Notes: generated from the sequence alone by a model not told the origin. Shown: positions 25,718 to 63,620, counted from the first letter of the whole stretch. The stretch is DNA of 63,693 nt, filler included, from Craspedostauros australis (GCA_030167865.1; 24 parts of 24 records of this genome joined end to end with filler, not necessarily neighbours in it), one strand, 5' to 3'. Program-made: numbers and translations.

Positions 25718-28360
25718 ACCTCAACATCGAGGGATTGACGCCAGAATGGATCGACGAGAATGACGTCGTCCCATCCCCCCTGGCCATGCACACCCTCTTC
25801 ATCGAGGGTGCCGTCATGAACAACGATGACTACACCCTCCGACTGCCGGAAGGCAAGACCATCGAGGACATGGCCATCGACATCAACGGCGTTGAGACCA
25901 GCAACCGCAGGCTCAGAGATTCCGACACCTCTCGTCAGCTCGAAGACCTGCCCTCGCAACTTGCGATGGGCGACAAGACCTTCCTCATCATCCGCGTTCT
26001 GACCAACAGCGGCGCGACGAGCGTCCCGCGGCAGGATATCATCGACAACTGCCTGGGCAAGTCGCCAAACTTCATCCAGCAATTTTCCGACATGTCCTTC
26101 GGCAAGCTCACCTTGACGGCGGAAAACACCAACGGATCTTCCGATGGCATTCTGGACATCACCATCGCGCGTGCAATCAACGGTGCAAACGGGGACAACA
26201 TCGAAGCGGATGTCACCACAGCCCTCGCCAACATTGGCATTGACGAAGACACCTTCGATCATCTCCTTTACACCTTCCCGTACGGTTCCATGAGCGGCGG
26301 CGATGTGGACTGGCTTGGTAAGCCCACCGAGTTTGTCTGTATGCTGTCGTGACGTAGTGTTTGTTTGTTTCGCTTGGCTTCACTTCACCATTGGTGGCTC
26401 GCCTGCGCCATGTGCATTTGACAACACCACGCACACCTTCTCACCCTCGTCACACACCATGCTACTATATGCCAACATGTGCGCGCTTTGGTATTGCGCG
26501 AATATTCCACTCTCACTGTTCCAATCTCTGCTCCCTTCGACAATATAAATGGGCTTGCTCCTGTCGCAGCCTACGCAGATACACCGGGTTCCACCGCTGT
26601 CTACAACGGCATCAACGACCCCCCTGGCGAGCACTACCTTTACGACATATCCACTGTCGTCCACGAAACCGGACACAACTACAACCTCGACCACAGTAAT
26701 GAGGGAGCAGAGGAATATGGTGACACCTCGTAAGTGCTCTGCCTTCCTGCGTCGGCTTCGTCTTGAACATGGTTGGGTGTGCAATTCATTCACACGTGAG
26801 CTCGCCGTGCAATTTTGACATCGGATGGGCGCAACCAAGTCCAGGGATGGATACTCTCTGCCATTCTGCCTCCCCTATGTGTATGTGCGCACAACCCACA
26901 AACCCCATCATGCCACCTCCTCACCGCGCGCTTTGCTCTTCGTCTCGCTCCCCTTCGTCCTATTCCGTCATGTACTCCTCGAATAACCATCGCGATCAAC
27001 CATTTTGGGGCATCTTCTTCGCTTTCCAGTGGCGCAATGGGTTTCGGTATCGGCGTACAGGACAGTTTGGACGAGATCAAAGGCTACAACGGTACGTCGC
27101 CTGCCAGAACAAAATGAACAAATGCACGGGTGCTGCTGCCTCCTATAATGTCTGGGAACAACTACGTGTCTGGTCTGCTCGCAGGCAACTGTCTTCCTCC
27201 CACTTCGCTGATCACTCCTCTCACCCATTCGCAATGCCGTCACCGCGTTGCCCCGAACATTCGTTCCTCGTCACTCGTTTCGTGGCAACGGAACCGCCGT
27301 GTCTTTTCCATGCTCACACTATTTGAACATCGACGGTCATGCCGACGATCATCACATCATTATATCTGCACTGTCGCGTTTTCATCGTGCACTGCAACCA
27401 AACAGGAGCCAAGAGCTTCGAGATTGGCTGGTATTCTGACCGAATGCTCGACCTGACTTCGGCGGGCGATAGCTACGAAGGCGTGATGTGCGGCGTGGTC
27501 GACTACAACCCATCCGACACCAGCTACATCGTGGGCCTCAGAATCAGAGATACGGGCAACTCGCAGGACTACTACGTCGCTTTCAACAGGGCCTCTGGCT
27601 TCAACAAAGACAGCACCGAAGGCAGGAACCAGGTTCTCGTGACGACAGCCCCGGCCTTCACTGGCACCACTACACAGTCCGTGTTGCTGTCGAGGCTCGA
27701 CGCAGGAGGTTCGTTCAGAAACGCCGACCCATCGTCGCTCGGTGGCATCAGCGTGTACGTGGACAGCATCGACCGTCTCTTCGTCAACGACAGGGTTTGC
27801 GCGACCGTCAAGGTCCAGTATGGCGAATTCTCTCCAGCGGCAACATCCGCGCCGAGTGCCTCCCCAGCGCTAACCAACGCTGCGCAAGCGTGGTATAGCA
27901 CAACCGTGACAGACACATTCACCAATGTCATCGAATCGTTCCGATTCGACCTGACCATCACTGCTGATGTGAGAATCACGGGCATGCGGTTGATCTTGGC
28001 CAACCGCTCGCAACAGGCATACTCCATCTATTTCCGGTCCAGCACCTGGAATGCCGATGGAACCTGGATGCAGATTGCCTCTGGTAACATCATGCCCGAA
28101 GGCCTCGGTCGGTTCACTGACGAGATCACATTCAACGCCCCGATTGAATTGTCCGCCGCTGACGGTACTGTTGCGTTCCGCATCGACTCGCCAACCAAAC
28201 TTCTGACTGAGTTTCAAAATACCTTCGCGGCTCATCCAGCCAACGGTTTCAGCTGTCCAAACTGCCCATTCAATGTCTTCTACGGACAAGCTGGCGTAGT
28301 TGCATCCGATAGCCAGAACAACTCTTTTGATTTTGCCGGATATCCTTTCGTCGGAGCCAT
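25718..28360 (+). CDS. M11 gametolysin-like metzincin, copy A (partial); exons 25718-26317, 26570-26729, 27030-27091, 27406-28360
   Basis: spliced product WLAYADTPG...HETGHNYNLDH...EYGDTSGAMG (Met-turn)...YNGAKSFEIGWY; all three introns GT-AG and phase-compatible; S/P/A linker then a beta-rich C-terminal domain. Confidence 0.85.
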
Positions 28361-28460
28361 NNNNNNNNNNNNNNNNNNNNNNNNNNNNNNNNNNNNNNNN
28401 NNNNTTAATTAATTAANNNNNNNNNNNNNNNNNNNNNNNNNNNNNNNNNNNNNNNNNNNN

Positions 28461-31168
28461 ACCTCAACATCGAGGGATTGACGCCAGAATGGATCGACGA
28501 GAATGACGTCGTCCCATCCCCCCTGGCCATGCACACCCTCTTCATCGAGGGTGCCGTCATGAACAACGATGACTACACCCTCCGACTGCCGGAAGGCAAG
28601 ACCATCGAGGACATGGCCATCGACATCAACGGCGTTGAGACCAGCAACCGCAGGCTCAGAGATTCCGACACCTCTCGTCAGCTCGAAGACCTGCCCTCGC
28701 AACTTGCGATGGGCGACAAGACCTTCCTCATCATCCGCGTTCTGACCAACAGCGGCGCGACGAGCGTCCCGCGGCAGGATATCATCGACAACTGCCTGGG
28801 CAAGTCGCCAAACTTCATCCAGCAATTTTCCGACATGTCCTTCGGCAAGCTCACCTTGATGGCGGAAAACACCAACGGATCTTCCGATGGCATTCTGGAC
28901 ATCACCATCGCGCGTGCAATCAACGGTGCAAACGGGGACAGCATCGAAGCGGATGTCACCACAGCCCTCGCCAACATTGGCATTGACGAAGACACCTACG
29001 ATCATCTCCTTTACACCTTCCCGTATGGTTCCATCAGCGGCGGCGATGTGGACTGGCTTGGTAAGCCCACCGAGTTTGTCTGTATGCTGTCGTGACGTAG
29101 TGTTTGTTTGTTTGTTTGTTTGTTTGTTTGTTTGTTTCGCTTGGCTTGGTTTCACTTCACCGTTGGTGGCTCGCCTGCGCCATGTGCATTTGCCAACACC
29201 AAGGGAGGCCCGCTTTGTTCTTCACGATGCAAACACCACGCACACCTTCTCACCCTCCTCACAAACCATGCTACTACATGCCAACATGTGCGCGCTTTGG
29301 TATTGCGCGAATATTCCACTCTCACTGTTCCAATCTCTGCTCCCTTCGATAATAAATGGGCTTGCTCCTGTCGCAGCCTACGCAGATACACCGGGTTCCA
29401 TCACTGTCTACAACGGCATCAACGACCCCCCTGGCGAGCACCACCTTTACGACATATCCACCATCACCCACGAAATCGGACACAACTACAACCTTGATCA
29501 CAGTAGTCAAGGAGGAGAGGAATATGGTGACACCTCGTAAGTGCTCTGCCTTCCTGCGTCGGCTTCGTCTTGAATGTGGTTGGGTGTGCAATTCATTCAC
29601 ACGTGAGCTCGCCATGCAATTTTTGCATCGGATGGGCGCGAGCCAGTCCAACTCCAGGAATGGATGCTCTCTACCATTCTGCCTCCCCTATGCGTATGTG
29701 CGCACAAACCACAAACCCCATCATGCCACCTCCTCACCGTGTGCTTTTCTCTTCGTCTTGCTCCCCTTCGTCCTATTCCTTCATGTACTCCTCGAATAAC
29801 CATCGCGATCAACCATTTTGGGGCATCTTCTTCGCTTTCCAGTGGCATAATGGGTGGCGCTATCGGCGTACAGGACAGTTTGGACGAGATCAAAGGCTAC
29901 AACGGTACGTCGCCTGCCAGAACAAAATGAACAAATGCACGGGTGCTCCTGCCTCCAAAAATGCCTGCGAATAACTACGTGTCTGGTCTGCTCGCAGGCA
30001 ACTGTCTTCCTCCCACTTCGCTGATCACTCCTCTCACCCATTCGCAATGTCGTCACCGCTTTGCCCCGAACATTCGTTCCTCGCCACTCGTTTCGTGGCA
30101 ACGGAACCGCCGTGGCTGTTCCATGCTCACACTATTTGAACATCAACGGTCACGCCGACGATCATCACATCATATCTGCTGTCGCGTTTTCATCGTGCAC
30201 TGCAACCAAACAGGAGCCAAGAGCTTCGAGATTGGCTGGTATTCTGACCGAATGCTCGACCTGACTTCGGCGGGCGATAGCTACGAAGGCGTGATGTGCG
30301 GCGTGGTCGACTACAACCCATCCGACACCAGCTACATCGTGGGCCTCAGAATCAGAGATACGGGCAACTCGCAGGACTACTACGTCGCTTTCAACAGGGC
30401 CTCTGGCTTCAACAAAGACAGCACCGAAGGCAGGAACCAGGTTCTCGTGACGACAGCCCCGGCCTTCACTGGCACCACTACACAGTCCGTGTTGCTGTCG
30501 AGGCTCGACGCAGGAGGTTCGTTCAGAAACGCCGACCCATCGTCGCTCGGTGGCATCAGCGTGTACGTGGACAGCATCGACCGTCTCTTCGTCAACGACA
30601 GGGTTTGCGCGACCGTCAAGGTCCAGTATGGCGAATTCTCTCCAGCGGCAACATCCGCGCCGAGTGCCTCCCCAGCGCTAACCAACGCTGCGCAAGCGTG
30701 GTATAGCACAACCGTGACAGACACATTCACCAATGTCATCGAATCGTTCCGATTCGACCTGACCATCACTGCTGATGTGAGAATCACGGGCATGCGGTTG
30801 ATCTTGGCCAACCGCTCGCAACAGGCATACTCCATCTATTTCCGGTCCAGCACCTGGAATGCCGATGGAACCTGGATGCAGATTGCCTCTGGTAACATCA
30901 TGCCCGAAGGCCTCGGTCGGTTCACTGACGAGATCACATTCAACGCCCCGATTGAATTGTCCGCCGCTGACGGTACTGTTGCGTTCCGCATCGACTCGCC
31001 AACCAAACTTCTGACTGAGTTTCAAAATACCTTCGCGGCTCATCCAGCCAACGGTTTCAGCTGTCCAAACTGCCCATTCAATGTCTTCTACGGACAAGCT
31101 GGCGTAGTTGCATCCGATAGCCAGAACAACTCTTTTGATTTTGCCGGATATCCTTTCGTCGGAGCCAT
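28461..31168 (+). CDS. M11 gametolysin-like metzincin, copy B (partial); exons 28461-29060, 29377-29536, 29843-29904, 30214-31168
   Basis: HEIGHNYNLDH...EYGDTSGIMG; same exon structure as copy A; longer (TTTG)n in intron 1 at about 29101-29137. Confidence 0.85.
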
Positions 31169-40931: not shown

Positions 40932-42223
40932 GATTTTGTCGACCTTTACGCTGATGGCGCGCTGACATCCGATATGGCCTTGGCCATGGCATCGGCTGTG
41001 ATCGTCGCCATCGCCATCATGGTCCACACCCGCAGTCCCTTCATCACATTGATTGGCCTGGTGCAGATCATGTTCAGCTTCCCACTGTCCTTCTTCGTCT
41101 ACAGCCTGATCCTTGGGCTGGAGTTCTTCCCATTCTTGAATTTCCTCGGCATGTTCGTCATCTTCGGACTTGGTGCTGACGACGTAAGTACTACATGGCC
41201 TCATACTCGTGTCATGGACGCACGATGAAGGANCCAAGANATTGCATATNCNCTGANAGCTCACNCAATCTTGTATCTAACCAATCGCATATGCTGTTCT
41301 GTTCATTCCATGTCACCGCTCTACCGCCATTGNATCTANCCACACCATCNCCATACCGCCATGCCGTCGTGCCATATTTGCATGCCACGCAACAATACTC
41401 TCAACGCGTATAAATGGAACACACGCACGCACACGCATGCACACGCATGCACACGCACGCACACAGGTCTTCGTTGCCATGGACAAGTGGAAGAATTCCC
41501 GCCTGGATCACCCCAACGTATCCACCGAAGACATTGCGGCTATGGCGCTGCCAGATGCTGCGTCTGCGATGTTCCTCACCACGGTCACCACCGCAGTCGC
41601 CTTCTTCGCCACCGCCATCTGCCCCGTCGCGCCAGTCAAGATGTTCGCGATCTTCTGCGGTCTCCTCGTCCTCCTCGATTACTTCCTCAACGTGCTACTG
41701 GTTTTCCCAGCCCTCTGCATGTATGACATCGCTATCCAAGAGAAGGGCGATCAGGTCCATTGCTGCATTCACTCCAATCATTGCTGCAACCTGTGCTGCC
41801 GCAAGAACGGTGGGGACAACGACAACGAAGCGGACCCAGAGACCTCCTCGCAACGTGAGGACAAGGCAGAGCGCAACGGCGACAGCCTTCACGATTCCAA
41901 CAACGATGCTGTTGACCATGGCGAACATGAACATGAAGATTCATCCCTCATTCGACGAGCCCTGCTGGGGCTGTTCCACATCCTGAAGCGTGGAAAGTGG
42001 CCGATCTTCGCGCTCTCCATGATTGCGCTTGTGGTGACCGCCATCTTCGCAGCACAGCTGGACCTCCCAACCTCTTCGGATGTCCGCGTTCTGGGAGATG
42101 ACGTCGAGTTTGAGCAGGCGTACTCCTGGCGACAGGAGCTTCTATACGATCAGCTCGATAGGGCAGAAGGCAGCGTCGCTTACATCATTTGGGGCGTCAA
42201 GCCCGCAGACACCGGCAACCACA
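40932..42223 (+). CDS. Dispatched/Patched-like RND sterol-sensing-domain protein, internal exons 40932-41183 and 41467-42223 (copy 1)
   Basis: FPFLNFLGMFVIFGLGADD|VFVAMDKWK (GxxxDD), AMFLTTVTTAVAF, FAIFCGLLV...VFPAL; GT-AG intron. Confidence 0.9.
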
Positions 42224-42372
42224 GTAAGTGAACCTCGTGACTTCGTGCGAAGAGATCCTGGCCAGCGTTTCTNNNNNNNNNNNNNNNNNNNNNNNNNNNN
42301 NNNNNNNNNNNNNNNNTTAATTAATTAANNNNNNNNNNNNNNNNNNNNNNNNNNNNNNNNNNNNNNNNNNNN

Positions 42373-43640
42373 GATTTTGTCGACCTTTACGCTGATGGCG
42401 CGCTGACATCCGATATGGCCTTGGCCATGGCATCGGCTGTGATCGTCGCCATCGCCATCATGGTCCACACCCGCAGTCCCTTCATCACATTGATTGGCCT
42501 GGTGCAGATCATGTTCAGCTTCCCACTGTCCTTCTTCGTCTACAGCCTGATCCTTGGGCTGGAGTTCTTCCCATTCTTGAATTTCCTCGGCATGTTCGTC
42601 ATCTTCGGACTTGGTGCTGACGACGTAAGTACTACATGGCCTCATACTCGTGTCATGGACGCACGATGAAGGANCCAAGANATTGCATATNCNCTGANAG
42701 CTCACNCAATCTTGTATCTAACCAATCGCATATGCTGTTCTGTTCATTCCATGTCACCGCTCTACCGCCATTGNATCTANCCACACCATCNCCATACCGC
42801 CATGCCGTCGTGCCATATTTGCATGCCACGCAACAATACTCTCAACGCGTATAAATGGAACACACGCACGCACACGCACACAGGTCTTCGTTGCCATGGA
42901 CAAGTGGAAGAATGCCCGCCTGGATCACCCCAACGTATCCACCGAAGACATTGCGGCTATGGCGCTACCAGATGCTGCGTCTGCGATGTTCCTCACCACG
43001 GTCACCACCGCAGTCGCCTTCTTCGCCACCGCCATCTGCCCCGTCGCGCCAGTCAAGATGTTCGCGATCTTCTGCGGTCTCCTCGTCCTCCTCGATTACT
43101 TCCTCAACGTGCTACTGGTTTTCCCAGCCCTCTGCATGTATGACATCGCTATCCAAGAGAAGGGCGATCAGGTCCATTGCTGCATTCACTCCAATCATTG
43201 CTGCAACCTGTGCTGCCGCAAGAACGGTGGGGACAACGACAACGAAGCGGACCCAGAGACCTCCTCGCAACGTGAGGACAAGGCAGAGCGCAACGGCGAC
43301 AGCCTTCACGATTCCAACAACGATGCTGTTGACCATGGCGAACATGAACATGAAGATTCATCCCTCATTCGACGAGCCCTGCTGGGGCTGTTCCACATCC
43401 TGAAGCGTGGAAAGTGGCCGATCTTCGCGCTCTCCATGATTGCGCTTGTGGTGACCGCCATCTTCGCAGCACAGCTGGACCTCCCAACCTCTTCGGATGT
43501 CCGCGTTCTGGGAGATGACGTCGAGTTTGAGCAGGCGTACTCCTGGCGACAGGAGCTTCTATACGATCAGCTCGATAGGGCAGAAGGCAGCGTCGCTTAC
43601 ATCATTTGGGGCGTCAAGCCCGCAGACACCGGCAACCACA
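42373..43640 (+). CDS. Dispatched/Patched-like protein, near-identical copy 2 (probable allele); exons 42373-42624 and 42884-43640
   Basis: same contig ends as copy 1; differs by a shorter CACG/CA intron repeat, one S/A change (KNS vs KNA) and a silent CTG/CTA. Confidence 0.9.
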
Positions 43641-43789
43641 GTAAGTGAACCTCGTGACTTCGTGCGAAGAGATCCTGGCCAGCGTTTCTNNNNNNNNNNN
43701 NNNNNNNNNNNNNNNNNNNNNNNNNNNNNNNNNTTAATTAATTAANNNNNNNNNNNNNNNNNNNNNNNNNNNNNNNNNNNNNNNNNNNN

Positions 43790-45150
43790 CACTTCGCGGA
43801 CACCCTCCGAACCATGGGATTCCTACCCTCCAAGGCCGACAATGACATCTACACCCGAGAAGCCGACGACCACCACGAGATGATCACCACATACGTGGAT
43901 GACGTACTGGTCTTCAGTAAGGACCCCATCCCAATCATCGACGACCTCAAGAAACGGTACACCATGAAACAATGCGGTGACCCGGAGTATTACCTTGGCG
44001 GAAACATTGTCGACCTTCCCAAGAACTGGAAGGACAGGGGAGTCAACATCGGACTCTCGGCCCAGACATACATCGGAAACGTCATCAAACGAGTGGAACA
44101 ACTAGTAGGGAAGATCATCCCGAAGGCATCCACCCCCATGGTAGAGGCCTGCCATCCAGAAAGCGACACCTTGGACTTTACAAGCGCTGAAGACGCCAGG
44201 ACCTACCGATCAATACTGGGTTGCCTCAATTGGGTCGTGACCCTCGGGAGGCTGGACATCCAATACGCCACGACGACGATGGCACGGTTCGCTATGGCAC
44301 CAAGGGAAGGACATCTCCTGACCATCCAACGTATCATNGGGTACCTCAAAGGTCGAGAAAGGGGAGCCATCCTCTGCGACCCCAACCCAGTGGACCACAC
44401 GAACATCGACACTACCCTCTCAAGCCATTGGAGAGAATTCTACCCTACCAAAGCAGAAGCCACCCCTGTACCAGTACCAACACCAAAAGGGAAGCCGGTT
44501 CAAATCACGTGTTACGTGGACGCCGACCATGGCCATGACCAGGTCACACGGAAATCCATGACGGGTGTGGTACTATTGATCAACAACACCATCGTTAAGA
44601 CCATCTGCAAATGGCAGAACACAGTGGAGACATCAACCTACGGATCCGAATTGGTAGCCGCCAGGATAGCTACCGAGGCGGTCACAGGCTTGCGCTACAT
44701 GCTGAGAGACCTCGGAGTCCCCATCGACGGACCCGCAATCATGCTCGGAGACAACAAAGCGGTGGTACTCAATACTACNNNNNNNNNNNNNNNNNNNNNN
44801 NNNNNNNNNNNNNNNNNNNNNNNNNNNNNNNNNNNNNNNNNNNNNNNNNNNNNNNNNNNNNNNNNNNNNNNNNNNNNNNNNNNNNNNNNNNNNNNNNNNN
44901 NNNNNACCAAGCCTCTTTCCAAAACACCATTCCACCACATCACATCGAGAACGATATTCCGGAACTCAATCCATGAGTCCGGATACCACAGCGAAACCGT
45001 ATCACAAGCCATAACAAAGAGCAGGACGACCAGAGCAGACGATGATCCCGACATAATGGCCACGGGAACGCAAGAACCATCACCACCGAAGGAAGAACAC
45101 ACTATGAGCGTGAACATGGCAAGGTACCAACAGACCTCCATGAAGTACAG
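43790..45150 (+). mobile_element. CoDi-type Copia RT C-terminus and RNase H
   Basis: TYVDDVL, YRSILGCLNW, YVDADHGHDQVTRKSMTG, ETSTYGSELVA, GDNKAVV, TKPL. Confidence 0.95.
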
Positions 45151-48242: not shown

Positions 48243-49309
48243 ATGTCGGACGGATTACCCCTGTACGCGCTCACCCCCGGGACCTTCGACTGGCTGGGTT
48301 GGTCCATCATTGACGTTTCCCTCAGCATGGAAGAGATCAAGCGACTCGGTAACACAGCAGATAATCAACGAATTTTTCTTTCCTTTTTTGGCACAACAGG
48401 AACGGTTCTACACACGTTGTGGAATGAAATCGGACAAGCTGGGCTATGTCGGCATGACATGCAGGCGAAGCACATTCTTTGGACAGCGGCGTTTCTGAAG
48501 CAGTACTCCACAGAGGCCATTCTGTCTGTGTGGTTGGGCACAAATCGCACCACACTCCGCAAATGGGTCTGGATCATGCTGGACTTAGTGAGCCGAGTAA
48601 AGCAGGACGTGGTAAGTCCGCAAATTGATCAACATTGGTTCTTTCGTGTTCCATTCACTTCTCCAACAAAGCACTAACATGTCACGCATAAATACTGCAG
48701 ATTCACTGGCCCAATCGTTTTCGTGGAGTGTCCGAAGACGACAAAGCGCTTGTCACTGTTGACGGAGTCGACATTCGCATCGAAGAACCGCAACCGTTCA
48801 CAGAGGGATGGTTTTCACAGAAGTTCAAGGGTCCAGGTGTCCGGTATGAGGTCGCCCTCTCGATTGTTGGTGGAGAGATCGTCTGGACCAATGGACCCTT
48901 TCCTTGTGGCATGTGGAACGATCTCAGCATCTTCCGTTTCGGTTTAAAAAACAAGCTGATGGACGGCGAAGTTGTTGTCGCCGACAAAGGATACATTGGG
49001 GATGAACGCGTTTTGCCTCCCAAGTACGTCACTGACAAGATTCTGCGTGCAAGACATGAGACTGTTAACCGACGGCTGAAGCACTGGGCATGTATGAGAA
49101 ATGCGTGGCGACATGACACCGACAAACACATTCTTGCCTTTAATGCGGTTGCCACCATTACGCAAATTGAGCTTGTGGGTGGTTCTCCACTGTTCGATCC
49201 CTTTCCGGTGGTGGAACGAAAGCTGGCTCGGATGAGATTGCGCGAGGCACTCGGCGAGCACCTGGATCGCGTAATGGAGGCCGACCCAAACGACAGTAGG
49301 ACTACCTAA
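48243..49309 (+). mobile_element. PIF/Harbinger-IS5-like (DDE_Tnp_4) transposase; exons 48243-48611 and 48701-49309
   Basis: HTH region KHILWTAAFLKQY...TLRKWVW; GTG|GTAAGT...CTGCAG|ATT intron; catalytic VDGVD, WNDLSIF, ADKGY, RARHETVNRRLK; no stops after splicing. Confidence 0.88.
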
Positions 49310-53202: not shown

Positions 53203-53303
53203 NNNNNNNNNNNNNNNNNNNNNNNNNNNNNNNNNNNNNNNNNNNNTTAATTAATTAANNNNNNNNNNNNNNNNNNNNNNNNNNNNNNNNNNNNNNNNNN
53301 NNA

Positions 53304-55359
53304 TTCTACCAAGATGACTACCTCTACATCTGCGGCCGCAAGAAGGACATCATCATCGTCAACGGTGTCAACTACTACCCGCAAGACATCGAGCAGGCCG
53401 TCGAGGAGGCATCATCCGCTGTCCGTCCAGGCTGCGTCGCTGCCTTCTCGTCCGACGATTCGGGAAATGACGGACAGCTCGAGATCGTCTTTGAGATTCG
53501 AGCGAGCCGTGCGGAGGATGCAGGATCGGTGAGTCGGGAGGTCAGAAAGGCCGTGATCGAACACATCGGGTTGACACCAGCAACAATCGCAGCCGTCAAA
53601 GAACGCACCATCTCCAAAACAACAAGCGGGAAGATCCAGAGACGCCAAAATCGACAACGCCTGCATGATGGAGCGCAGAAGGTGGTGCTTGACGTGATCG
53701 AAAAGTCACACTTCTTCAGTACGCACGATACCAACCTCGCAAGCCAATCCAAGCGCCTGTCGTCGAGGAAATCCATCATCGAAGACTTCGATATCAGAGA
53801 CATGGACTTCTACGAGCTTGTGAAGAGGTGCATCGGTTCTGATGTGAAGGCCGAAGACACGTGGAAGGATGTTGGACTGTCATCCTTGATGGAGCTGGAG
53901 CTGCGACAGTCTTTTTCAACACGGTACAGCGCCACCCTCTCTCCAAACTGCTTCGAGCTCTTTCCAATGGTCGGTGACCTGAAGACGGTCCTTGAGGCAA
54001 CAGCGGGGAAGCCTCTGCCAAGGAACCTCTCAACCCTCAGGAGGCTCGCCACCGTCCCACACGAGAGGCCACTGTCCCAAGCAACCGTCGCTGTCATCCA
54101 GGCCATCGGTGCGCTCGCCATACTCTTCATCTTCGCACTCCCCATTATCCCAGCATACGAAGTTGGAAATGCGATCGCCGATTCCACGGTCCTCTCCGAC
54201 CATGAGTGGGTGCTTTTCCCTCTGATCGTCCCAGTCTGGGCCACCGCGTTCACCTTCGTGATCATTGTCTCGAAGTGGATCGCCATTGGCCGATACAGAG
54301 AGGGGTATACCAATCAAACAAACATCTACTTTATCAGATGGTGGTTCGTGGACAGGCTCGTGCATCTTTGGGAAAACTTCGTCGGACGCTTCATCGTGGG
54401 CACGCCTTTGATGACGTTGTTCTGCTACTTGATGGGCGCTGATGTTCATCGGTCTTGCAACATTTCCTCCTTCATTCGGGAGTTCGATCTGGCGAAGGTC
54501 GATGCCAATGCCTTGGTGTGCAAGCCAATCCGCTGTCGAATGTTCGGACCATGGAAAGATGAAGAAGGTCCCAGCTTGCGGTTCCGCAAGATCCAGGTGG
54601 GACCGAATGCCATGATCATGGGAATTCTCAGCCCAGGCGTCAAGGTCGGTTCCAATTGCCATGTGCAGCACATTTCTGTGCTGGCTGAGGGCGCCCAAGC
54701 ACCATCCAGCACTGTCATCAGAGGCAATCCTGGATATATCAAAAGCACAACATTTGCAACAGCAAAAGCGACATCGTCACAAAACAGCAACAGCGTCAGT
54801 GTTGACCGCGGTGATAGCGACAGCTACCGTAACGGCGACGATCCGCAACAAGCAGTTGCAAGTACAGAGATCGACATAGACGAAAGCGCAATGTCAAGAA
54901 ACGATGCCAGATGGATCATCCTGGGTGGTATGAAGATGACATGGCTGCTTGTCGAGATATACATAACCTTCTGCTGCTTCCTGATTTCTAATATCTTGGT
55001 CCGAGATCATCTTCCAGACTGGAGATATTCCAAACTGCAATATTGGATTATATCCATCGGTCTAACATCAGTACTGCTGATGATATCCAGCATCATGCTC
55101 AAGTGGGTGATGATCGGCAAGAAAAGGCCAGGCAAAGCGAGGGCGGGCATCTTGAGTGAATTCACTGATTGGGCATGCGACTACCACTTCAACCTGGCAT
55201 GTCTGATGCTCGACGGACCGACGCACAATTCGATCATCTGGACTCTGGTCCAAATGGCTCATGGACTGGACATCGATCTGCGATCAAAAGTCTTCTGCGA
55301 CAGCTTCCACCCATCGAAAGTCGACCTCATCACCATTCGACGATCCTTCGTTTCCAAGG
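53304..55359 (+). CDS. FAAL(C-terminal subdomain)-ACP-Pls-type membrane NRPS-like protein, version 1 (both ends cut by linkers)
   Basis: frame from 53304: LYICGRKKDIIIVNGVNYYPQDIE...RPGCVAAF...KTTSGKIQR; carrier-domain GLSSL at 53874; KWIAIGRYREG...RWW...GTPL...LMGA...EFDL; KWVMIGKKRPG. Confidence 0.85.
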
Positions 55360-55460
55360 NNNNNNNNNNNNNNNNNNNNNNNNNNNNNNNNNNNNNNNNN
55401 NNNTTAATTAATTAANNNNNNNNNNNNNNNNNNNNNNNNNNNNNNNNNNNNNNNNNNNNA

Positions 55461-58397
55461 TTCTACCAAGATGACTACCTCTACATCTGCGGCCGCAAGA
55501 AGGACATCATCATCGTCAACGGTGTCAACTACTACCCGCAAGACATCGAGCAGGCCGTCGAGGAGGCATCATCCGCTGTCCGTCCAGGCTGCGTCGCTGC
55601 CTTCTCGTCCGACGATTCGGGAAATGACGGACAGCTCGAGATCGTCTTTGAGATTCGAGCGAGCCGTGCGGAGGATGCAGGATCGGTGAGTCGGGAGGTC
55701 AGAAAGGCCGTGATCGAACACATCGGGTTGACACCAGCAACAATCGCAGCCGTCAAAGAACGCACCATCTCCAAAACAACAAGCGGGAAGATCCAGAGAC
55801 GCCAAAATCGACAACGCCTGCATGATGGAGCGCAGAAGGTGGTGCTTGACGTGATCGAAAAGTCACACTTCTTCAGTACGCACGATACCAACCTCGCAAG
55901 CCAATCCAAGCGCCTGTCGTCGAGGAAATCCATCATCGAAGACTTCGATATCAGAGACATGGACTTCTACGAGCTTGTGAAGAGGTGCATCGGTTCTGAT
56001 GTGAAGGCCGAAGACACGTGGAAGGATGTTGGACTGTCATCCTTGATGGAGCTGGAGCTGCGACAGTCTCTTTCAACACGGTACAGCGCCACCCTCCCTC
56101 CAAACTGCTTCGATCTCTTTCCAATGGTCGGTGACCTGAAGACGGTTCTTGAGGCAACAGCGGGGAAGCCTCTGCCAAGGAACCTCTCAACTCTCAGGAG
56201 GCTCGCCACCATCCCAAATGAGAAGCCATTGTCTCGGTTGGCAACCACACTCATCCAACTTGTTGGCGTGCTCGCCATCCTCTTCATCTTCGCACTTCCC
56301 GTCGTGCCTGCCTACGAGATTGGGAAGTTTTTGGCCAACAACGATCACACGCGCGTCGTCTTCTTCATCGATCTCACTCCATACGTCTGGGTCTTCTATC
56401 CGTTGATTATCCCAGTGTGGGTCGCTTCCTTCACACTGGAAATCATACTCGTAAAGTGGATCGTCATTGGGCGGTACAGGGAAGGGCACACCAACCAGGC
56501 CAGCCTTTACTTCCTTCGATGGTGGTTCGTCGATCGATTGCTACATCTTTGGGAACATTTCGTCAGCCGTTTCATCGTGGGCACGCCTTTGATGACGTTG
56601 TTCTGCTACTTGATGGGCGCTAATGTTCATCGGTCATCCAACATCGACGCGACCGTTCGTGAGTTTGATCTGGTGAAGATTGGTTCTCATGCAACTGTGA
56701 GTGAACCCATTCGATGCCGAATGTTCGGTCCTTTGAGAGATGATAGCCAAGGTCCCAGCTTGAGGTTTCGGAAGATCCAAGTCGGTTCGGACACAACCAT
56801 CAAGGGCATGCTCTGCCCTGGTGTCAAGGTTGGTTCCAATTGCCAAGTGCAACGCATCTCGGTTCTTGCTGAAGGTGCACAAGCACCATCAAACATCACA
56901 ATCAGCGGCAACCCAGGTTTCATCGACGCCACCGGAGCAGCCAACATACTGGACGGTGAAGGGTCGGGCAGGGAGCCGCCAGATGCATCTGCAAAGCATA
57001 GGATCAGCAGGAGCAGATGGATCTTGTTGGGAACGCTGAAGCTGGCATGGTTGGTTTTCGAGCTTCACTTCGCATTTGCCTGTTTTCTTGTGATCGACAT
57101 ACAGGTCGGTAGCGAGCTGCCGAGCTGGAGGTACGCCAAGTTGCTATACCGGCTGCTTATGATTGGATTGGTGTCCAGCTTCTTTGTCGTCTCCACGATC
57201 ATCCTGAAATGGGCGATGATTGGCAAGAAACGACCGGGTCCAGCACGGATGGGAGTGCTGTCGGAGTTTGCCGACTGGGCATGTGACTTTCACTACAGCT
57301 TGGGAGGAGCGACGCTGTATGGACTGACTTTCAATTCACCAGTGTGGAACCTCATCCTCATGGCTTCCGGGATGGATATCGACATGCGATCAAAGATAGC
57401 AGCAGACAGCTTCTGCCCTTCCAAGCTGGACCTCGTCGCCGTCAACGGATCCTTCGTGTCGAAAGCTTCCTTTGATATTGAACAGAATGGAGAATACAAG
57501 CCAATCAGGATCGAAGACAGCAGCATTGGCGCGATGGTGGCATATCGTCCTGGCGTGATCATCCGCAGAACATTGGTCTCCCCGGCCACAACTATCACCA
57601 ACGACCTAATTCACGATCACGACGACCCACGAAACAAGCGCCCCACAAGTTGGGAGTTCCTCCAGACTACATTCATCACCACATTGCTGTACGCCATCAT
57701 GTTCCTCGTGGTGGCCGCCAGCTTCATCCCGGCGTTCGAGCTGTGGATGTATGCCATCAAGCCACAGACTCCATTGGCCGCAGTCCCTACTTTGGTGATA
57801 GGCATCATCGTCCAGACCATCATTTGGCTCATAATCTTGCGGATTGTTGAGTTCATCACCTTGGCCGGAGGGAGGCAGCGCTCTGAACCATGGTGCGTCC
57901 CGCTCTACATGGTATACCAATCCTTGTGTTACTCCATTCATATCTGGTCGTTTGTGTCCACCCTTTGGGGCACACCGATGATGAATGCAGTACTCCGATT
58001 CCAAGGTGCGGATATCCAGGGAAGGCTGCTGTATTTTGGATTCCGAGTCTACGAACCCTCGCTTGTGACATTTGCAGGTGGAACTGTCATCGACGAGGCA
58101 AACATTTCGGGGCATTACGGCGTATTCTCGACACTGACATTGGGAGAGTGCTTTGCGGACGGCGTCATGCACCAACAAGCATTTGTTCTGGCGAGGAGGG
58201 AACCAACGCAACCAGGCGGAAGCCTGATTGAGCATCGTCCAGGGAAGATGGTTGGTGACGATCAAGCACCGTGCACGGAACAACTGCAATCACCGTCCAT
58301 CTTGGTGCTGGTCGAAGAAGGCCGCAGGTCAACTGACCCAGGAGCTGCGCTCGATCGTTGTACTATGCAAGATCTGGACACCACTGCACGATCATGA
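55461..58397 (+). CDS. FAAL(C-terminal subdomain)-ACP-Pls-type membrane NRPS-like protein, version 2 (5' cut, 3' complete)
   Basis: same adenylation and ACP motifs, then three TM-pair/beta-rich repeats (KWIVIGRYREG; KWAMIGKKRPG; GTPMMNAVLRFQGADIQG...EPSLV) as in epsilon-poly-L-lysine synthetase C1-C3; no intron in this part. Confidence 0.88.
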   Translation, partial: FYQDDYLYICGRKKDIIIVNGVNYYPQDIEQAVEEASSAVRPGCVAAFSSDDSGNDGQLEIVFEIRASRAEDAGSVSREVRKAVIEHIGLTPATIAAVKERTISKTTSGKIQRRQNRQRLHDGAQKVVLDVIEKSHFFSTHDTNLASQSKRLSSRKSIIEDFDIRDMDFYELVKRCIGSDVKAEDTWKDVGLSSLMELELRQSLSTRYSATLPPNCFDLFPMVGDLKTVLEATAGKPLPRNLSTLRRLATIPNEKPLSRLATTLIQLVGVLAILFIFALPVVPAYEIGKFLANNDHTRVVFFIDLTPYVWVFYPLIIPVWVASFTLEIILVKWIVIGRYREGHTNQASLYFLRWWFVDRLLHLWEHFVSRFIVGTPLMTLFCYLMGANVHRSSNIDATVREFDLVKIGSHATVSEPIRCRMFGPLRDDSQGPSLRFRKIQVGSDTTIKGMLCPGVKVGSNCQVQRISVLAEGAQAPSNITISGNPGFIDATGAANILDGEGSGREPPDASAKHRISRSRWILLGTLKLAWLVFELHFAFACFLVIDIQVGSELPSWRYAKLLYRLLMIGLVSSFFVVSTIILKWAMIGKKRPGPARMGVLSEFADWACDFHYSLGGATLYGLTFNSPVWNLILMASGMDIDMRSKIAADSFCPSKLDLVAVNGSFVSKASFDIEQNGEYKPIRIEDSSIGAMVAYRPGVIIRRTLVSPATTITNDLIHDHDDPRNKRPTSWEFLQTTFITTLLYAIMFLVVAASFIPAFELWMYAIKPQTPLAAVPTLVIGIIVQTIIWLIILRIVEFITLAGGRQRSEPWCVPLYMVYQSLCYSIHIWSFVSTLWGTPMMNAVLRFQGADIQGRLLYFGFRVYEPSLVTFAGGTVIDEANISGHYGVFSTLTLGECFADGVMHQQAFVLARREPTQPGGSLIEHRPGKMVGDDQAPCTEQLQSPSILVLVEEGRRSTDPGAALDRCTMQDLDTTARS

Positions 58398-58600
58398 ACG
58401 ATTCGATCAGATTCAGGCGGTCATTAATACTACTCAAAAGAGTAGGTTTTAATGCCTCTCTACTTCTCCAACTCTCTTCAATCAATACTTTCAGTTTCGA
58501 ACATTTAAACCGCTCTGCTACCAACAGCAACTCTTGCAAATCGTCTCCGTCGACCATCTCACCAGCCTTGATGAATGACATATCGCCGAAGTACGATAGA
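58363..58600 (-). pseudogene. BTB/POZ-like fragment
   Basis: YLSYFGD...LQELLLVAERFKCSKLKVLIE resembles the C-terminal helices of BTB; no upstream part seen. Confidence 0.4.
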
Positions 58601-58825
58601 TATCAGTAAGGAAATTTTCGGGACTTAGGACCCACTCGAGTGAACGAAGGTGCAGTCGTGCCTGATCGTGACTTAAACTGTAACAAAATAAGTACATATT
58701 CGGAATCTACGCAAAATTCTGTCGAGGGATATTTAATTTAAAAATCGGCAGAGTTTGTTGGAAATCCGGGGTTATTGTTAGTACTGTAGTCTAATCCGCT
58801 GTTAGAAACTGTACCGTTTTAGAAC

Positions 58826-59424
58826 TGTGAGCACAATCTCACTTTCTCTTCCGATTTCATTCTTCATGATAGGCATCTGTCGCGGTGGCGACACAGGGCG
58901 TCCTGTTGTTCCTAGGTGCTTCTCTCCCCATTCATCATGCTCTGTTCTTGCTTCCTTGTCTTGGCATTGTTGTTGCTTGCCTCTGCATCGTCGTAGATGT
59001 CTACGCTCGCATGGTAGGGGTCTGCAGTCCTGAGCACTTGCCTATCACATGTCTCCGTTGTTGATCTCATGACACCATCGTTCCACGATCGATGTCAACC
59101 TTGGTGATGTTCCAAACCTGCGGATGTTCTGATCCTTTCTGATGTTCCAAACCTGCGGATGTTCTTGTCCGCAGGAGGGGCGCGTGCTGTCCTCTGAAGG
59201 GGGTGCGTCACTTACCCATTGGCCTGCTGTTCTGGTCGACGTCGTCGTCTGGATGGTTGCCATGGTTGGTTTGGTATTGGGACCTCCTGATCCGCCAAAG
59301 GTGTCGTCCTTGCGTTACTGGAGGACAGGCTATCTTCCTCACGGTAGTACAGGTATCAATCGCGTCCGTACCCTTAGTCATAGTCACAATGACATGGCAT
59401 ATAAAGGCGTGACAAATAGTCTCA
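58826..59424. mobile_element. Possible solo LTR (~600 bp)
   Basis: TG...CA ends flanked by GAAC on both sides (candidate 4-bp TSD); internal duplication of TGATGTTCCAAACCTGCGGATGTTCT at about 59105-59165. Confidence 0.35.
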
Positions 59425-60076
59425 GAACATGTGACGAATAATATTCAAAGCTGTGATGAATAATGTTGGAAGGTGCGGCAATCACGGGTATTCCAACAAA
59501 GTCGTACCCTCGTTTCCTAACAGTTCGCCACCATCAGATCGCCTACGCAATTTGTGCTGCGGAAGGAGGTGACGAATTTGTGACGGAGCGCAAGGGACTG
59601 AACATGAACGTGCGGAAACAAACGTTCACCGAAACTGACAAGGACGGCAATGAGATCGGTGTGACTGTGTCTCACACGGACTTCACGTTGGAGGAGGAGG
59701 AGGATGTCGAAATGTGTGACATCAGTAATTCCCGATTGTACGGGACTGAACCAAAATAGAGTACAGAAACAACAAATACCCCCCTACCGTTAACGTGGCA
59801 AGCGCATGATCGATCACTCCTGAGCGTTACAGGAGCACGTTACTTTTGGGACTACGGGGAATTTCGACAGGAGGAGGATGAGGCAACCAACGATGCTTCC
59901 AAGAAACCAACTGCAACAGGCAAGAAAGGCAAACCAGCTGGCTTCAAATACGCCAAGCCCGACATCAAAGGTATGTNNNNNNNNNNNNNNNNNNNNNNNN
60001 NNNNNNNNNNNNNNNNNNNNTTAATTAATTAANNNNNNNNNNNNNNNNNNNNNNNNNNNNNNNNNNNNNNNNNNNN

Positions 60077-61271: not shown

Positions 61272-61949
61272 AAAAATATTTGGTCTTGGTTTTCTCACGA
61301 CTGTCCGCCAACACGTTGCGTGTACCCCTCGGTACGAACCAAGACCAAATGGGAACTGCAGAGAAACAAGGGATTGGAGACTACCAATCACTGATGTTTA
61401 TCAAGAGGTTCATTGCAGATTACATTTGAATCACAAAAGTGATTGGATTGAACTGCAAAGACTTCTTGTATGTATGACCTCAGCCCTTGACACAAACAGA
61501 ATGATAGAAGTAGGAGTCATGCCTCTGCTGCTCCAAGACGAACCAAGATCAGCAGGAGAACATGAGATGCTTGAAGGATCGATACATTGCAAGAAAGGAG
61601 TGAAACAAGGCACACAGCCAAGTGTCTTGCTCTGCAGAGAGTACAATGATGTCTGCAGGAAATCTCCTGCAAACAACACTGCCAAGAAACATGTCCTGCA
61701 TGATTGTTGTCTCTTCATTGTCTTCATCATCATCTTCATTATCTTCATCATCAACTTAATCATAAAATGCAAAAGTTCACAAGTCAAAACACTCTTCAAA
61801 CACAGTACAAATCAATTGCATTCACTCTCGTCTTCCCATCGTAACTCTGACACCAAACGACTTCATCAGTCGGTCCGAGTTGCGACATTGAACGCTTGCT
61901 CAAGGCAACACAACAAACAATTTTCTCACAGCAACAAAACACAAGTCCG

Positions 61950-62208
61950 TGTCGAGATGTACATGTGAGTATATGTCAAGATGTACGTGTATATGTGCAT
62001 CGTTCACCCGTTATTCTCTCATACGTACTTGGACGGTATAACTACATTCGTGTCGATAGTATACTGTGATTCGTCAGAATTACAGGGGAAACGGAACACA
62101 CGAAAAGGGGCAAGATTTCTGGAGGAAATTTGCAAATGACGATTTCTGAGAGAATTGGAATATCGTCCGTCCATCCATCAATGGTACCAAGAGAATCTTG
62201 AGGTACTT
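61950..62208 (+). mobile_element. Start of an LTR of a second family (cut by linker)
   Basis: begins TGTCGAGATG; about 255 bp closely match the reverse complement of 63352-63608. Confidence 0.65.
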
Positions 62209-62859: not shown

Positions 62860-63620
62860 TGTTGGTTGATAGTCGTTCGTTTGCTATTTCATTAGTTGGC
62901 TACTCCGATCCTCTCGGTGTACGCCCGTTCTCTTGCCCGATGCTCTCGGTGCTTCAATCTGTTTCGTAGATTCGGTCTCCGACTATGAGTCGGTGCGCGA
63001 GATGCTCTCTCGTTCCTCTCTGTATTCTCTCTCTGTCTCAGCATCGCATGCTTCGTGCTACGCGATACTACATGTTTGATGCATACTCAGCATTCGACAC
63101 TCCGTTCGTTCAGTACTGGTTCCTACTCCATGAGTACTTGCCATTTGAAGTTCATCTCCTGTATCCATGATGCTGATGCCCTTCGGTCATTGGATCTTCG
63201 CCTCCTGCTCTGACTTGGAGACAGATGTCGACATGGTGACACGATGACATCCTGTCGACGTCAGTAGACGTCCTTCTGCTCTCCAGATGTCATGTTCCAT
63301 TGGTGATGCAGCGGTCTGTCAGATGATATCGTCATCTGAGGTTTAGTTGGGAAGTACCTCGAGATTCTCTTGGTACCATTGATGGATGGACGGACGATAT
63401 TCTGATTCTCTCAGAAATCATTATTTGCAAATTTCCTCCAGAAATCTTGCCCCTTTCCATGTGTTCCATTTCCACTGTAATTCTGACGAATCACAGTATA
63501 CTATCGACATGAGTGTAGTTATACCGTCCAAGTACGAATGAGAGAATAATGGGTGAACGATGCACATATACACGTACATCTCGACATATACTCACATGTA
63601 CATCTCGAAACCCTTCCTGT
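62860..63620 (-). mobile_element. Probable 3' LTR of the same family with polypurine tract (left boundary tentative)
   Basis: minus strand AGGAAGGG followed by TTTCGAGATGTACATG; homology to 61950-62208; candidate end TCAACCAACA at 62860. Confidence 0.55.

Follow-up and report, generated by a model that had tools for sequence, protein, structure and literature searches.

The Pls/PosA proteins are membrane-bound non-ribosomal peptide synthetases (epsilon-poly-L-lysine synthetase), and the accessible part of a published description gives Pls a carrier domain with six transmembrane (TM) helices and three tandem soluble domains after it (PMC7179176). Fatty acyl-AMP ligases (FAALs) that load a carrier protein, such as FadD32 and FadD21, offer a second comparison; FAAL-PKS is the fusion named for diatoms in the portion of a FAAL survey available to us, in which no mention of a FAAL fused to a Pls-like membrane module was found (PMC12820801). 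As far as the accessible texts go, mosaics formed by interlocus gene conversion are documented for tandem HMA4 copies of Arabidopsis halleri (bioRxiv 10.1101/2025.10.29.685298) and for GOT1 paralogues of Tigriopus (PMC3728101).

The window, that is, the whole stretch of DNA analysed (63,693 nt), consists of 24 scaffolds with spacers of the form N...TTAATTAATTAA...N between them. Two of these scaffolds, S21 (53303-55359; 2057 nt, open at both ends) and S22 (55460-59976; 4517 nt), carry partial genes belonging to a family of ~1400-residue proteins that combine a FAAL-type adenylation domain, a carrier domain, and a Pls/PosA-like membrane module. Judging by what the accessible texts report, S21/S22 resembles the HMA4 and GOT1 mosaics in that identity adjoins strong divergence within a probable paralogue pair and short, apparently converted patches occur in addition, but differs in that the edge falls in a domain linker of a multi-domain synthetase and in that the pair is known from scaffolds alone.

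Architecture of the two gene copies

Copy A occupies the whole of S21 (53303-55359, plus strand; frame from 53304, 685 codons) and contains the FAAL C-terminal subdomain, the carrier domain, the first of the soluble domains, and the TM helices TM1-TM4; the scaffold end then cuts the gene. The coding part of copy B on S22 (55460-58397, plus strand; frame from 55461, 978 codons) is an ORF that runs up to a TGA at 58395-58397, and the 5' end of this gene is absent from the scaffold. In tblastn searches, copy A aligned with residues 553-1203 (41.6% identity) and copy B with residues 553-1507 (42.5% identity) of the relative P0001. To judge by the P0001 alignment, which begins at residue 553, ~550 upstream residues are missing; of the adenylation domain, the window includes only ~125 C-terminal residues, together with the carrier domain. 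The loading module that the sequence-only reading took to be shared by the two copies was therefore confirmed for about a third of its length, the rest of the module lying outside the window.

Residues 1-125 best matched the NCBIfam models NF005850 (long-chain-fatty-acid--CoA ligase), NF040633 (FadD32-like), NF006624, and NF009124 (fatty acyl-AMP ligase) with E values of 1e-23 to 1e-25, all scores being under the curated full-length cut-offs, which a 125-residue piece cannot reach. The C-terminal subdomain also matched PF23024 with 32-33 bits (cut-off 27). The C-terminal subdomain and hinge motif of the window proteins are of the FAAL type, as in FadD32 and FadD21, and as in these systems a putative carrier domain follows directly. 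In full-length relatives, FAAL models matched best (E 1e-71 to 1e-93), and P0001 and P0031 scored 130 and 119 bits, respectively, on TIGR01733 (cut-off 317.4). A FAAL-specific insertion in the N-terminal domain blocks CoA use; the place of this insertion lies outside the window in both copies. The core of the carrier (PP-binding) domain was located at 53838-53981 (plus strand) in copy A, corresponding to 55995-56138 in copy B. Matches to PF00550 were weak (E 0.033 in copy A and 0.0044 in copy B, both below the 20.8-bit cut-off), and the Gly and Ser of the GLSS motif are nearly invariant among 45 aligned family members. The putative phosphopantetheine serine is encoded by codon 194 (53883-53885 and 56040-56042), within the tract that is identical between the copies.

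The membrane module of copy B (56211-58394, plus strand) comprises three units. In the AlphaFold2 model (mean pLDDT 87.4, pTM 0.88), each unit is predicted to hold four helices, two of them TM, along with a left-handed beta-helix domain, with the beta-helix parts at residues ~405-488, 659-717, and 856-899 and a disordered tail from ~935; hydropathy likewise gave three TM pairs, at residues 264-331, 517-587, and 730-800. The internal repeat U1-U2 was detected with E 8.7e-5. A Foldseek search of the model against the PDB returned 29 matches with E <= 0.001, and among the matches listed (E values from 1.7e-4, probabilities of 0.77-1.0, TM-scores of up to 0.56 by target length) nearly all were hexapeptide-repeat proteins, chiefly maltose, galactoside, and serine acetyltransferases. 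By sequence alone, the beta-helix match was weak (4n27, E 0.13; Pfam LbH, E 0.028).

As in Pls/PosA, a putative carrier domain precedes a region with six TM helices and a tandem series of three soluble domains, and in the modelled S22 protein the helices form three pairs alternating with the soluble domains, which appear likewise to adopt a hexapeptide acyltransferase fold. The S22 protein is collinear with residues 409-1257 of P0112 (23% identity, E 2e-23), itself a true member of TIGR02353 (678 bits; P0112, P0114, and P0108 range over 678-721 bits). In contrast, the S22 and S21 proteins scored 77.5 (E 7.1e-22) and 62.6 bits, respectively, on this model, below its cut-off of 423.1. Pls/PosA further differs in adenylating an amino acid, whereas the window proteins and their full-length relatives are of the fatty acyl-AMP ligase type, and the host of S21/S22 is eukaryotic and diatom-like. 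By analogy with these systems, the FAAL domain would adenylate a fatty or other carboxylic acid and load it onto the carrier phosphopantetheine, and the carrier would pass the thioester to the three acyltransferase-like beta-helix domains, which lie in tandem and which the six helices would keep at the membrane; these domains would transfer the acyl group to an acceptor. The specificity for this acceptor may, as an analogy with Pls suggests, reside in the membrane module. Since a fatty acid lacks an amine, Pls-like polymerisation would be expected only with an amino or hydroxy acid as substrate.

A step in synonymous divergence

The two copies are identical over exactly 610 nt (53303-53912 in copy A and 55460-56069 in copy B, plus strand), in agreement with the ~610 bp reported in the sequence-only reading. 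This tract takes in the FAAL C-terminal subdomain, passes through a linker, and extends into the carrier domain; the codon alignment showed 0 differences at 137.7 synonymous sites in 203 codons. In the near-identical zone that follows (53913-54053 in copy A, plus strand; 56070-56210 in copy B), which completes the carrier domain and enters the linker to TM1, the few SNPs noticed earlier proved to be five differences in 141 nt (53913, 53940, 53957, 53990, and 54035; two synonymous and three non-synonymous), with a dS of 0.055 over 47 codons. The divergent membrane module begins at 54054/56211 (54054-55359 in copy A, plus strand, aligned with 56211-57465 of copy B) and exhibited 65.6% identity over 1227 aligned nt and 59% residue identity, with pS 0.67, dS ~1.67, and dN 0.30 over 444 alignment columns. 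From column 701 onward, S21/S22 had 14-51 mismatches per 100 columns. The offset between the copies shifts by +24, +27, and then -51 nt, every shift being a multiple of 3, so that the sharp in-frame divergence with indels described in the sequence-only reading holds.

The dN/dS analysis put forward with that reading was carried out, together with a breakpoint analysis. The maximum chi-square method placed the main breakpoint at 54059/56216 (chi2 312.9), a value reached by 0 of 1000 shuffles, in which the maximum was 19; a second break, at 53912/56069, was reached by 5 of 1000 shuffles. An abrupt and significant change in synonymous divergence, as expected of gene conversion or chimeric paralogues, was found along the pair. 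Neither frame contains a stop codon, and dN/dS between the copies is ~0.18: the frames have stayed intact, and purifying selection acts on both. Among 69 family-conserved columns, 58 are kept by both copies, three by S22 only, three by S21 only, and five by neither, and from their coding sequences both copies look functional.

The divergent part is interrupted by an identical island of 51 nt (54390-54440 in copy A and 56571-56621 in copy B, plus strand), the ~50-bp island noticed previously, which extends to 65 nt with one mismatch. Elsewhere in the divergent part, identical runs reach at most 17 nt, and a 51-nt run was reached by 0 of 20000 codon-column shuffles (maximum 40). At the entry of the first soluble domain, the island encodes the most conserved motif, FIVGTPLMTLFCYLMGA. 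Leaving aside M and W, the copies have the same residue at 226 codons of the divergent part and use the same codon at 112 of these; in the island, 18 of 18 such codons are identical (15 in the 51-nt run and the next three past a single D/N change).

Mosaic relationships among diatom relatives

The membrane modules of S21 and S22 are sisters (SH-aLRT 100, path 0.61), the next relative being P0001 at 1.3, and the best match outside the pair is 39-43% identical. Diatom paralogues from Seminavis robusta and Chaetoceros tenuissimus share the three-part architecture (1300-1560 residues) and, among the matches listed, are 29-36% identical at a query coverage of at least 93%; they are not close, with a best match of 43% overall and ~36% for a named protein among the matches listed. 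Their database names ('Putative fatty-acid--CoA ligase FadD21', 'D-alanine--D-alanyl carrier protein ligase', and hypothetical protein) cover only the adenylation part. The FAAL-carrier-Pls-like family is expanded in diatoms: at least 29 of 120 clusters among the matches listed bear the Seminavis robusta name, and the accessible part of the FAAL survey reports 16 FAALs in the genome of this species (PMC12820801). Among the matches listed, several Seminavis robusta paralogues have a longest-contig value in common, such as 31739 in P0067, P0068, and P0074, which suggests that their genes may be clustered.

Mosaic relationships between the parts were found in the diatom paralogues too. In the tree of the FAAL N-part, the Seminavis robusta paralogues P0031 and P0039 grouped together, as did P0029 and P0059 (support 100 each), whereas in the membrane-part tree P0031 grouped with P0059 (96) and P0029 with P0047 (95). 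Three of four AU tests in these paralogues rejected the clades of the other part (p 9e-51, 2e-5, and 0.002; fourth 0.095), the clades having been picked after the trees had been seen. A similar conflict involves P0002, P0010, P0007, and P0009: P0010 grouped with P0002 in the FAAL N-part (99), but the membrane part placed it in the other major clade, with P0009, and the membrane data rejected (P0002,P0010), a clade likewise picked once the trees were known, with p 2e-6. Such conflict between the FAAL and membrane parts, as read from these trees, supports recombination in the relatives and is in line with the divergence step in S21/S22. P0002 and P0010 stem from short metagenome contigs and could be chimeric themselves.

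Over 1519 pairs, conservation averages 8 identity points (+0.08) higher in the FAAL part than in the membrane part, and some pairs that are more similar in their 5' part thus reflect constraint, not exchange. Furthermore, the mosaics among the relatives go in both directions, some pairs having a common membrane module and different FAAL parts, so the design envisaged in the sequence-only reading, a constant donor paired with alternative acceptor modules, was not demonstrated.

Origin of the shared 5' part

Considering the divergence step along the pair, we propose, with a probability of roughly 0.6, that S21 and S22 are paralogues at separate loci of one eukaryotic, diatom-like genome, and that interlocus gene conversion or unequal crossover has recently homogenised their 5' part. 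The membrane modules would be old lineage-specific duplicates that diverged under purifying selection, and the region reaching from the adenylation hinge through the carrier domain would recently have been made identical via non-allelic homologous exchange, either as interlocus gene conversion or as an unequal crossover that left one copy chimeric. On its 3' side, the exchange would end in the linker, ~13 codons ahead of TM1. The raggedness of this edge (no differences over 610 nt, then five in 141 nt) and the separate 51-65-nt patch on the most conserved motif would fit repeated conversions of differing age and length. With ~550 upstream codons outside the window, the exchanged tract could be only 610-750 nt. 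A search for a third sequence from the same organism, by which the exchange could be polarised, found none.

The behaviour of the assembly bears on this proposal. The draft is highly fragmented, with gaps and single Ns, and the scaffold pairs S7/S8 and S15/S16 of the window also have a common start, from which it follows that the common start of S21/S22 is an assembler convention for a fork, the stretch preceding the fork being written onto both scaffolds. The 610-nt identical tract is exactly one such stretch, ending at the first difference, and since the stretch is written once per branch, the assembly is compatible with one physical copy of the tract as well as with two. This counts against the paralogue reading, as does the fact that S7/S8 and S15/S16 re-join as closed bubbles, as haplotypes would give (0-11 mismatches per 100 columns); in its favour, near-identity runs past the shared stretch into each branch, through the five-SNP zone. 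The branches of S7/S8 were held separate across identical runs of up to 87 nt, and the 44- and 51-nt identical runs in S21/S22 are therefore not graph joints.

Some of these features would also be expected if S21 and S22 were two haplotypes of one locus in a diploid heterozygote, that is, alternative continuations of a single 5' part, either as very old balanced alleles or as a heterozygous fusion or deletion haplotype derived from unequal crossover in a tandem array. Both scaffolds start at the same base in the pattern of S7/S8 and S15/S16, the shared stretch ends exactly at the first difference, and the 3.5% divergence of the five-SNP zone is within the range of S7/S8. From column 701, however, the mismatches far exceed those of the other pairs, several indels occur, and the scaffolds do not re-join across the available 1.3 kb; moreover, the family is multi-copy in diatoms, going by the Seminavis robusta counts given above. 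We thus consider a single locus unlikely. Of the two origins offered in the sequence-only reading, recombination or gene conversion best explains the synonymous step, and deeply divergent alleles are less likely at a pS of 0.67 and 59% residue identity.

An artefact, in which the assembler threaded the shared tract onto a second gene or the scaffolds came from different organisms in a mixed culture, seems improbable, although the draft is very fragmented and the assembler demonstrably repeats stretches on several scaffolds (399 nt on S6, S7, and S8). Graph joins need exact overlap, and each branch has its own variant of the 141-nt zone; the last SNP is separated from the divergent part by 18 identical nt, far under the 87 nt across which S7/S8 stayed apart; and the continuations are homologous, run collinearly, and share one frame. 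Even with two organisms, a dS of 0 adjoining a dS of 1.7 would still need recombination. The higher average conservation of the FAAL part would fit old paralogues that underwent no exchange and differ in constraint, the 5' part being held much more strongly, but protein constraint leaves synonymous change in place and so cannot explain the absence of synonymous differences next to a pS of 0.67; this explanation deserves hardly any weight.

Beyond the exchange between these two paralogues, a more speculative and, in our view, doubtful extension is that the diatom FAAL-carrier-Pls-like genes form a combinatorial family, in which paralogue exchange repeatedly re-pairs loading parts and membrane modules. 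The breaks may fall between the adenylation hinge and TM1, and selection may hold the membrane modules distinct. If true, this would represent a natural module-swapping system in a so far uncharacterised class of membrane-embedded synthetases, whose products could be lipid conjugates, or polymers given an amino or hydroxy acid substrate, and S21/S22 would be the most recent module-swap event, caught in the act.

The 3' flank of copy B on S22 (58398-59976) has a GC content of 0.478. It contains two ORFs of 98-99 aa, for which no Pfam matches were found, and a tandem repeat with a 17-nt unit at 59106-59164.

Stepwise divergence between the two gene copies

In a codon alignment, the gene copies on scaffolds S21 (53303-55359, 2057 nt) and S22 (55460-59976, 4517 nt; coding part 55460-58397) were identical over nt 1-610, with 0 differences at 137.7 synonymous sites, and carried five differences in the following 141 nt (two synonymous and three non-synonymous; dS 0.055). 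From 54054/56211 (S21/S22 positions) onwards, identity was 65.6% over 1227 aligned nt (pS 0.67, dS approximately 1.67, dN 0.30). Offset shifts of +24, +27 and then −51 nt between the copies left both in frame, and neither frame contained a stop codon. The alignment thus bore out the description in the sequence-only reading of some 610 bp of identity between the contigs, a few SNPs up to 54053/56210, a sharp in-frame divergence with indels and an identical island of about 50 bp, the last being a 51-nt identical run (54390-54440 = 56571-56621; 65 nt if one mismatch is allowed). A maximum chi-square scan placed the main breakpoint at 54059/56216 (chi2 312.9), a value reached by 0 of 1000 shuffles (shuffled maximum 19), and a second breakpoint at 53912/56069, reached by 5 of 1000. 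The mosaic of S21 and S22 is real and statistically unambiguous.

The next-longest identical run in the divergent part was 17 nt, and none of 20000 codon-column shuffles matched the 51-nt run. The island is not explained by protein conservation alone: its 18 codons for identical residues (M and W excluded; 15 in the 51-nt run and the next three past a single D/N change) all matched between the copies, whereas over the rest of the divergent part the copies shared the codon at just 112 of 226 such positions. GC3 was 0.685 in the shared tract compared with 0.632 and 0.644 in the divergent parts, a small difference from which we draw no inference on biased conversion.

In the membrane-part tree (41 rows), the S21 and S22 modules were sisters (SH-aLRT 100) at a path of 0.61 changes per column, and their next relative, the protein P0001, lay at a path of 1.3; a search with the S21 module for a closer relative to date the split gave a best match of 39% identity. 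The family alignment has 69 columns with conservation of 80% or more; of these, 58 were kept by both copies, three were lost in S21 only, three in S22 only and five in both. Together with an overall dN/dS of approximately 0.18, the tree and these columns thus indicate two functional-looking, long-separated, lineage-specific copies. With this dN/dS, positive selection on the membrane module is unsupported; pN was near or above pS only in windows of the linker, which is rich in gaps and unreliably aligned. Despite the old split of the modules, the 5′ 750 nt of the two copies are identical or nearly so, and protein-level constraint cannot erase synonymous change, suggesting that sequence was exchanged between them.

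Assembly forks and the origin of the mosaic

The window, 63,693 bases of a fragmented draft assembly, comprises 24 scaffolds with spacers (N...TTAATTAATTAA...N) between them, and its content is eukaryotic nuclear DNA. One 16.6-kb scaffold has ORFs on both strands, and Pfam matches in the window included copia-type reverse transcriptase and gag pieces, a DDE_Tnp_4 transposase, Patched/sterol-sensing domains and an M11 gametolysin-like piece. Given the ORFs on both strands, the retroelement and transposase pieces and the scaffolding gaps, the window is genomic and not a transcript, and alternative splicing was therefore rejected as the source of the two versions. The copia-type pieces (gag_pre-integrs, SH3_retrovirus and RVT_2) and the DDE_Tnp_4 ORF are located at 21422-23308, 43790-44335 and 48692-49306. 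A 260-nt stretch is present with 94% identity, in opposite orientation, at the end of scaffold S23 (61949-62208) and in the interior of scaffold S24 (63352-63611).

Besides S21 and S22, two scaffold pairs in the window have the same start. S7 and S8 (within 23799-31168, spanning S6-S8) share exactly their first 399 nt, which recur reverse-complemented at the start of S6, then differ at 0-11 positions per 100 columns and by indels across approximately 1.3 kb, and finally share 990 identical nt to a common end; they form a closed bubble, probably of two haplotypes. S15 and S16 (40932-43689) are identical over 500 nt, differ by a 24-nt indel and two SNPs, and are again identical over 722 nt to their end. 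Single Ns occupy the same nine columns in both S15 and S16, indicating that one consensus stretch was written twice. The patterns of these two pairs thus show that the assembler copies the shared stretch before a fork onto every scaffold leaving it; same-start scaffold pairs in this assembly represent forks, not proof of duplicated sequence. S8 also holds an M11 gametolysin-like ORF (28860-29537), and S15 and S16 both hold a Patched/sterol-sensing-domain ORF.

The 610 nt shared by S21 and S22, ending at the first difference, are such a pre-fork stretch, and the assembly therefore fits either one copy of it (two haplotypes of one locus) or two copies (two loci). S7 and S8 stay separate even where they are identical for as many as 87 nt, and the 44- and 51-nt identical runs between S21 and S22 are thus not graph crossover sites. 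The S21 and S22 branches are sound in the assembly. Exact searches with the first 40 nt of the shared tract gave 0 matches among metagenome contigs and 0 among genome contigs.

Considering these results, we favour, with a probability of roughly 0.6, two paralogous loci that underwent a recent non-allelic homologous exchange reaching from the adenylation hinge, or further upstream, to where the carrier domain ends. This may have been a gene conversion, or an unequal crossover leaving one chimeric copy. Conversion appears to have happened several times, in events differing in age and length, because the edge is graded (0 differences in 610 nt, five in 141 nt, then 34% mismatch) and a separate short identical patch sits on the most conserved motif, FIVGTPLMTLFCYLMGA. 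The recombination or gene conversion proposed in the sequence-only reading gained support from the synonymous step of 0 to 0.055 to approximately 1.67, though its allelic alternative keeps a minor share of the probability. As alleles, S21 and S22 would be two haplotypes of one locus, in line with the way the assembly handles them like its haplotype bubbles; however, they diverge about an order of magnitude more than the sequences in those bubbles, and we consider this explanation unlikely. An assembly artefact or a mixed sample appears more doubtful still. Copying of a foreign 5′ part onto one contig by the assembler, in particular, is unlikely because beyond the shared stretch each branch continues at once into the 141-nt near-identical zone with variants of its own. 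Constraint alone, acting on the two copies without any exchange, is contradicted at synonymous sites and retains almost no probability.

Loading part and membrane module

Both frames begin within the adenylation domain. Residues 1-125 match PF23024 and, with E values of 1e-23 to 1e-25, the NCBIfam long-chain fatty-acid ligase and fatty acyl-AMP ligase (FAAL) models. The carrier domain that follows gave weak, sub-threshold PF00550 matches (E 0.0044 and 0.033), and the Gly and Ser of its GLSS motif are nearly invariant in the 45-row family alignment, with codon 194 as the putative phosphopantetheine serine. Family matches inside the window are confined to S21 and S22, and the upstream FAAL N-domain is not among them; the alignment to P0001 begins at residue 553 of that protein. 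The loading module that had been described as shared is thus shared for the approximately one-third of it inside the window, the rest lying outside. The left end of the shared stretch (53303/55460) lies eight codons upstream of the GRKKD hinge motif, between the adenylation N- and C-subdomains. Identity between the related proteins P0002 and P0010 breaks at the same hinge place. This left end may have arisen by accident, through coverage or the assembly graph, or may mark a second breakpoint or fork between the copies; the identical tract may thus be as short as 610-750 nt.

The part after the carrier domain matches the Pls/PosA terminal-domain model TIGR02353 (E 7.1e-22 and 2.3e-17) with scores of 77.5 and 62.6 bits, far under the cut-off of 423.1. 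The S22 membrane module is complete, hydropathy indicating six TM helices in three pairs, and S21 ends with its scaffold after TM4, upstream of the third beta-helix unit (SGHYG region). The 1.58-kb 3′ flank of S22 has no recognisable gene; it contains a 17-nt unit repeated 3.4 times (59106-59164), also visible as a 35-nt direct repeat (59099-59168). The internal units of S22 are weakly alike (U1-U2, E 8.7e-5; U1-U3, 0.018; U2-U3, 0.095), and a confident AlphaFold2 model built on the family alignment (mean pLDDT 87.4, pTM 0.88) has three repeats of a unit of two TM helices, two further helices and a beta-helix. Foldseek returned 29 matches to the model at E ≤ 0.001; among the matches listed, nearly all were hexapeptide-repeat acetyltransferases, and none was a solved Pls-like membrane protein. 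A PDB sequence search with the membrane module gave no significant match (best E 0.13).

Hexapeptide acyltransferases work as trimers whose active sites lie at the subunit interfaces. By analogy, a pseudo-trimer could arise within a single chain from the three tandem beta-helix copies. His 885 of S22 (58113-58115), in the motif SGHYG of the third beta-helix domain, is kept in 90% or more of the 45 family members aligned and is a candidate catalytic base. The FAAL domain would adenylate a carboxylic acid and load the carrier phosphopantetheine, the carrier would offer the thioester to the membrane-held beta-helix domains, and these may pass the acyl group to an acceptor.

The related protein P0112 is collinear with the S22 protein from the carrier domain as far as the third unit (E 2e-23 at 23% identity); it has a true amino-acid adenylation domain and scores above the TIGR02353 cut-off (678 bits). 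Epsilon-poly-L-lysine synthetase is described as having A and T domains, six TM helices and three tandem domains (PMC7179176); on that description the architecture is the same, with a FAAL-type loader here instead of the amino-acid loader. The family combines the Pls architecture with a fatty-acid-type loader. The mosaic is of an ordinary kind, arising by gene conversion or unequal crossover between paralogues, and its location is informative: the break at a domain linker parts the carrier-loading section from the membrane module, in a family large in diatoms. If real, the exchange would be a natural domain-swap experiment in which loader and membrane module are interchangeable units, and a useful guide to the products of these enzymes.

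The family in diatoms and its other mosaics

Among 8000 candidates, 795 proteins matched at E ≤ 0.001, the best with 43% identity. Seminavis robusta was named in 29 of the 120 clusters listed, Chaetoceros tenuissimus in two, and one MMETSP transcript was present. Among the matches listed, the named relatives were diatom proteins of 1300-1560 residues, and the more distant ones came from Ectocarpus, Chrysophaeum and a chytrid; matches in the ESM Atlas likewise included uncharacterised Bacillariophyta clusters. A recent FAAL survey (PMC12820801) puts diatoms highest among eukaryotes in FAAL number, with 16 in S. robusta; its available part gives FAAL-PKS for diatoms and contains no mention of a Pls-like fusion. 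'Fatty-acid', 'FadD', 'AMP-binding', 'gene conversion' and 'hexapeptide' are all absent from the main text of the genome paper on Seminavis (PMC7335047), where 'acyl' occurs once, in an unrelated context. Our literature searches, including those for diatom poly-L-lysine synthetase and TIGR02353, found no description of a family combining FAAL with the Pls architecture. The enzyme family is uncharacterised, unusual and large in diatoms.

Over 1519 pairs of relatives, identity was on average 8 points higher in the FAAL N-part than in the membrane part. Among 74 close pairs, the FAAL N-part was more similar by at least 15 points in 20, ten of which include the protein P0078, and the membrane part by at least 10 points in five. 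Trees of eight closely related paralogues from Seminavis disagreed between the parts: the FAAL N-part grouped P0031 with P0039 and P0029 with P0059 (both at support 100), and the membrane part P0031 with P0059 (96) and P0029 with P0047 (95). In AU tests at the protein level, on clades picked post hoc from trees already seen, three of four cross-constraints were rejected (p 9e-51, 2e-5 and 0.002; the fourth, p 0.095).

The FAAL N-domain of P0010 is 83-85% identical to that of P0002 and of the P0002/P0007 type, and its C-subdomain, carrier and membrane module are like those of P0009, which belongs to the other major clade, with the break at the adenylation hinge; for both P0002 and P0010 the source is a short contig from a metagenome. 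The membrane data rejected a grouping of P0002 with P0010 (p 2e-6). P0010 represents a deep module swap that occurred naturally or, alternatively, a chimeric contig of the metagenome. A search of metagenome contigs with P0002 for the DNA of this second mosaic pair gave 39 pattern matches, 0 of them confirmed. These protein comparisons suggest that exchange is typical of the family and runs in both directions. Of the proposal that a constant donor is paired with alternative acceptor modules, the exchange is therefore supported, and the constant donor is not, the mosaics of the relatives being insufficiently one-directional; alternative acceptor specificity of the membrane modules is an analogy with Pls. 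Breaks lie at the adenylation hinge in P0002/P0010, after the C-subdomain in P0031/P0039, and near the carrier/TM1 junction in P0074/P0078 and in S21/S22.
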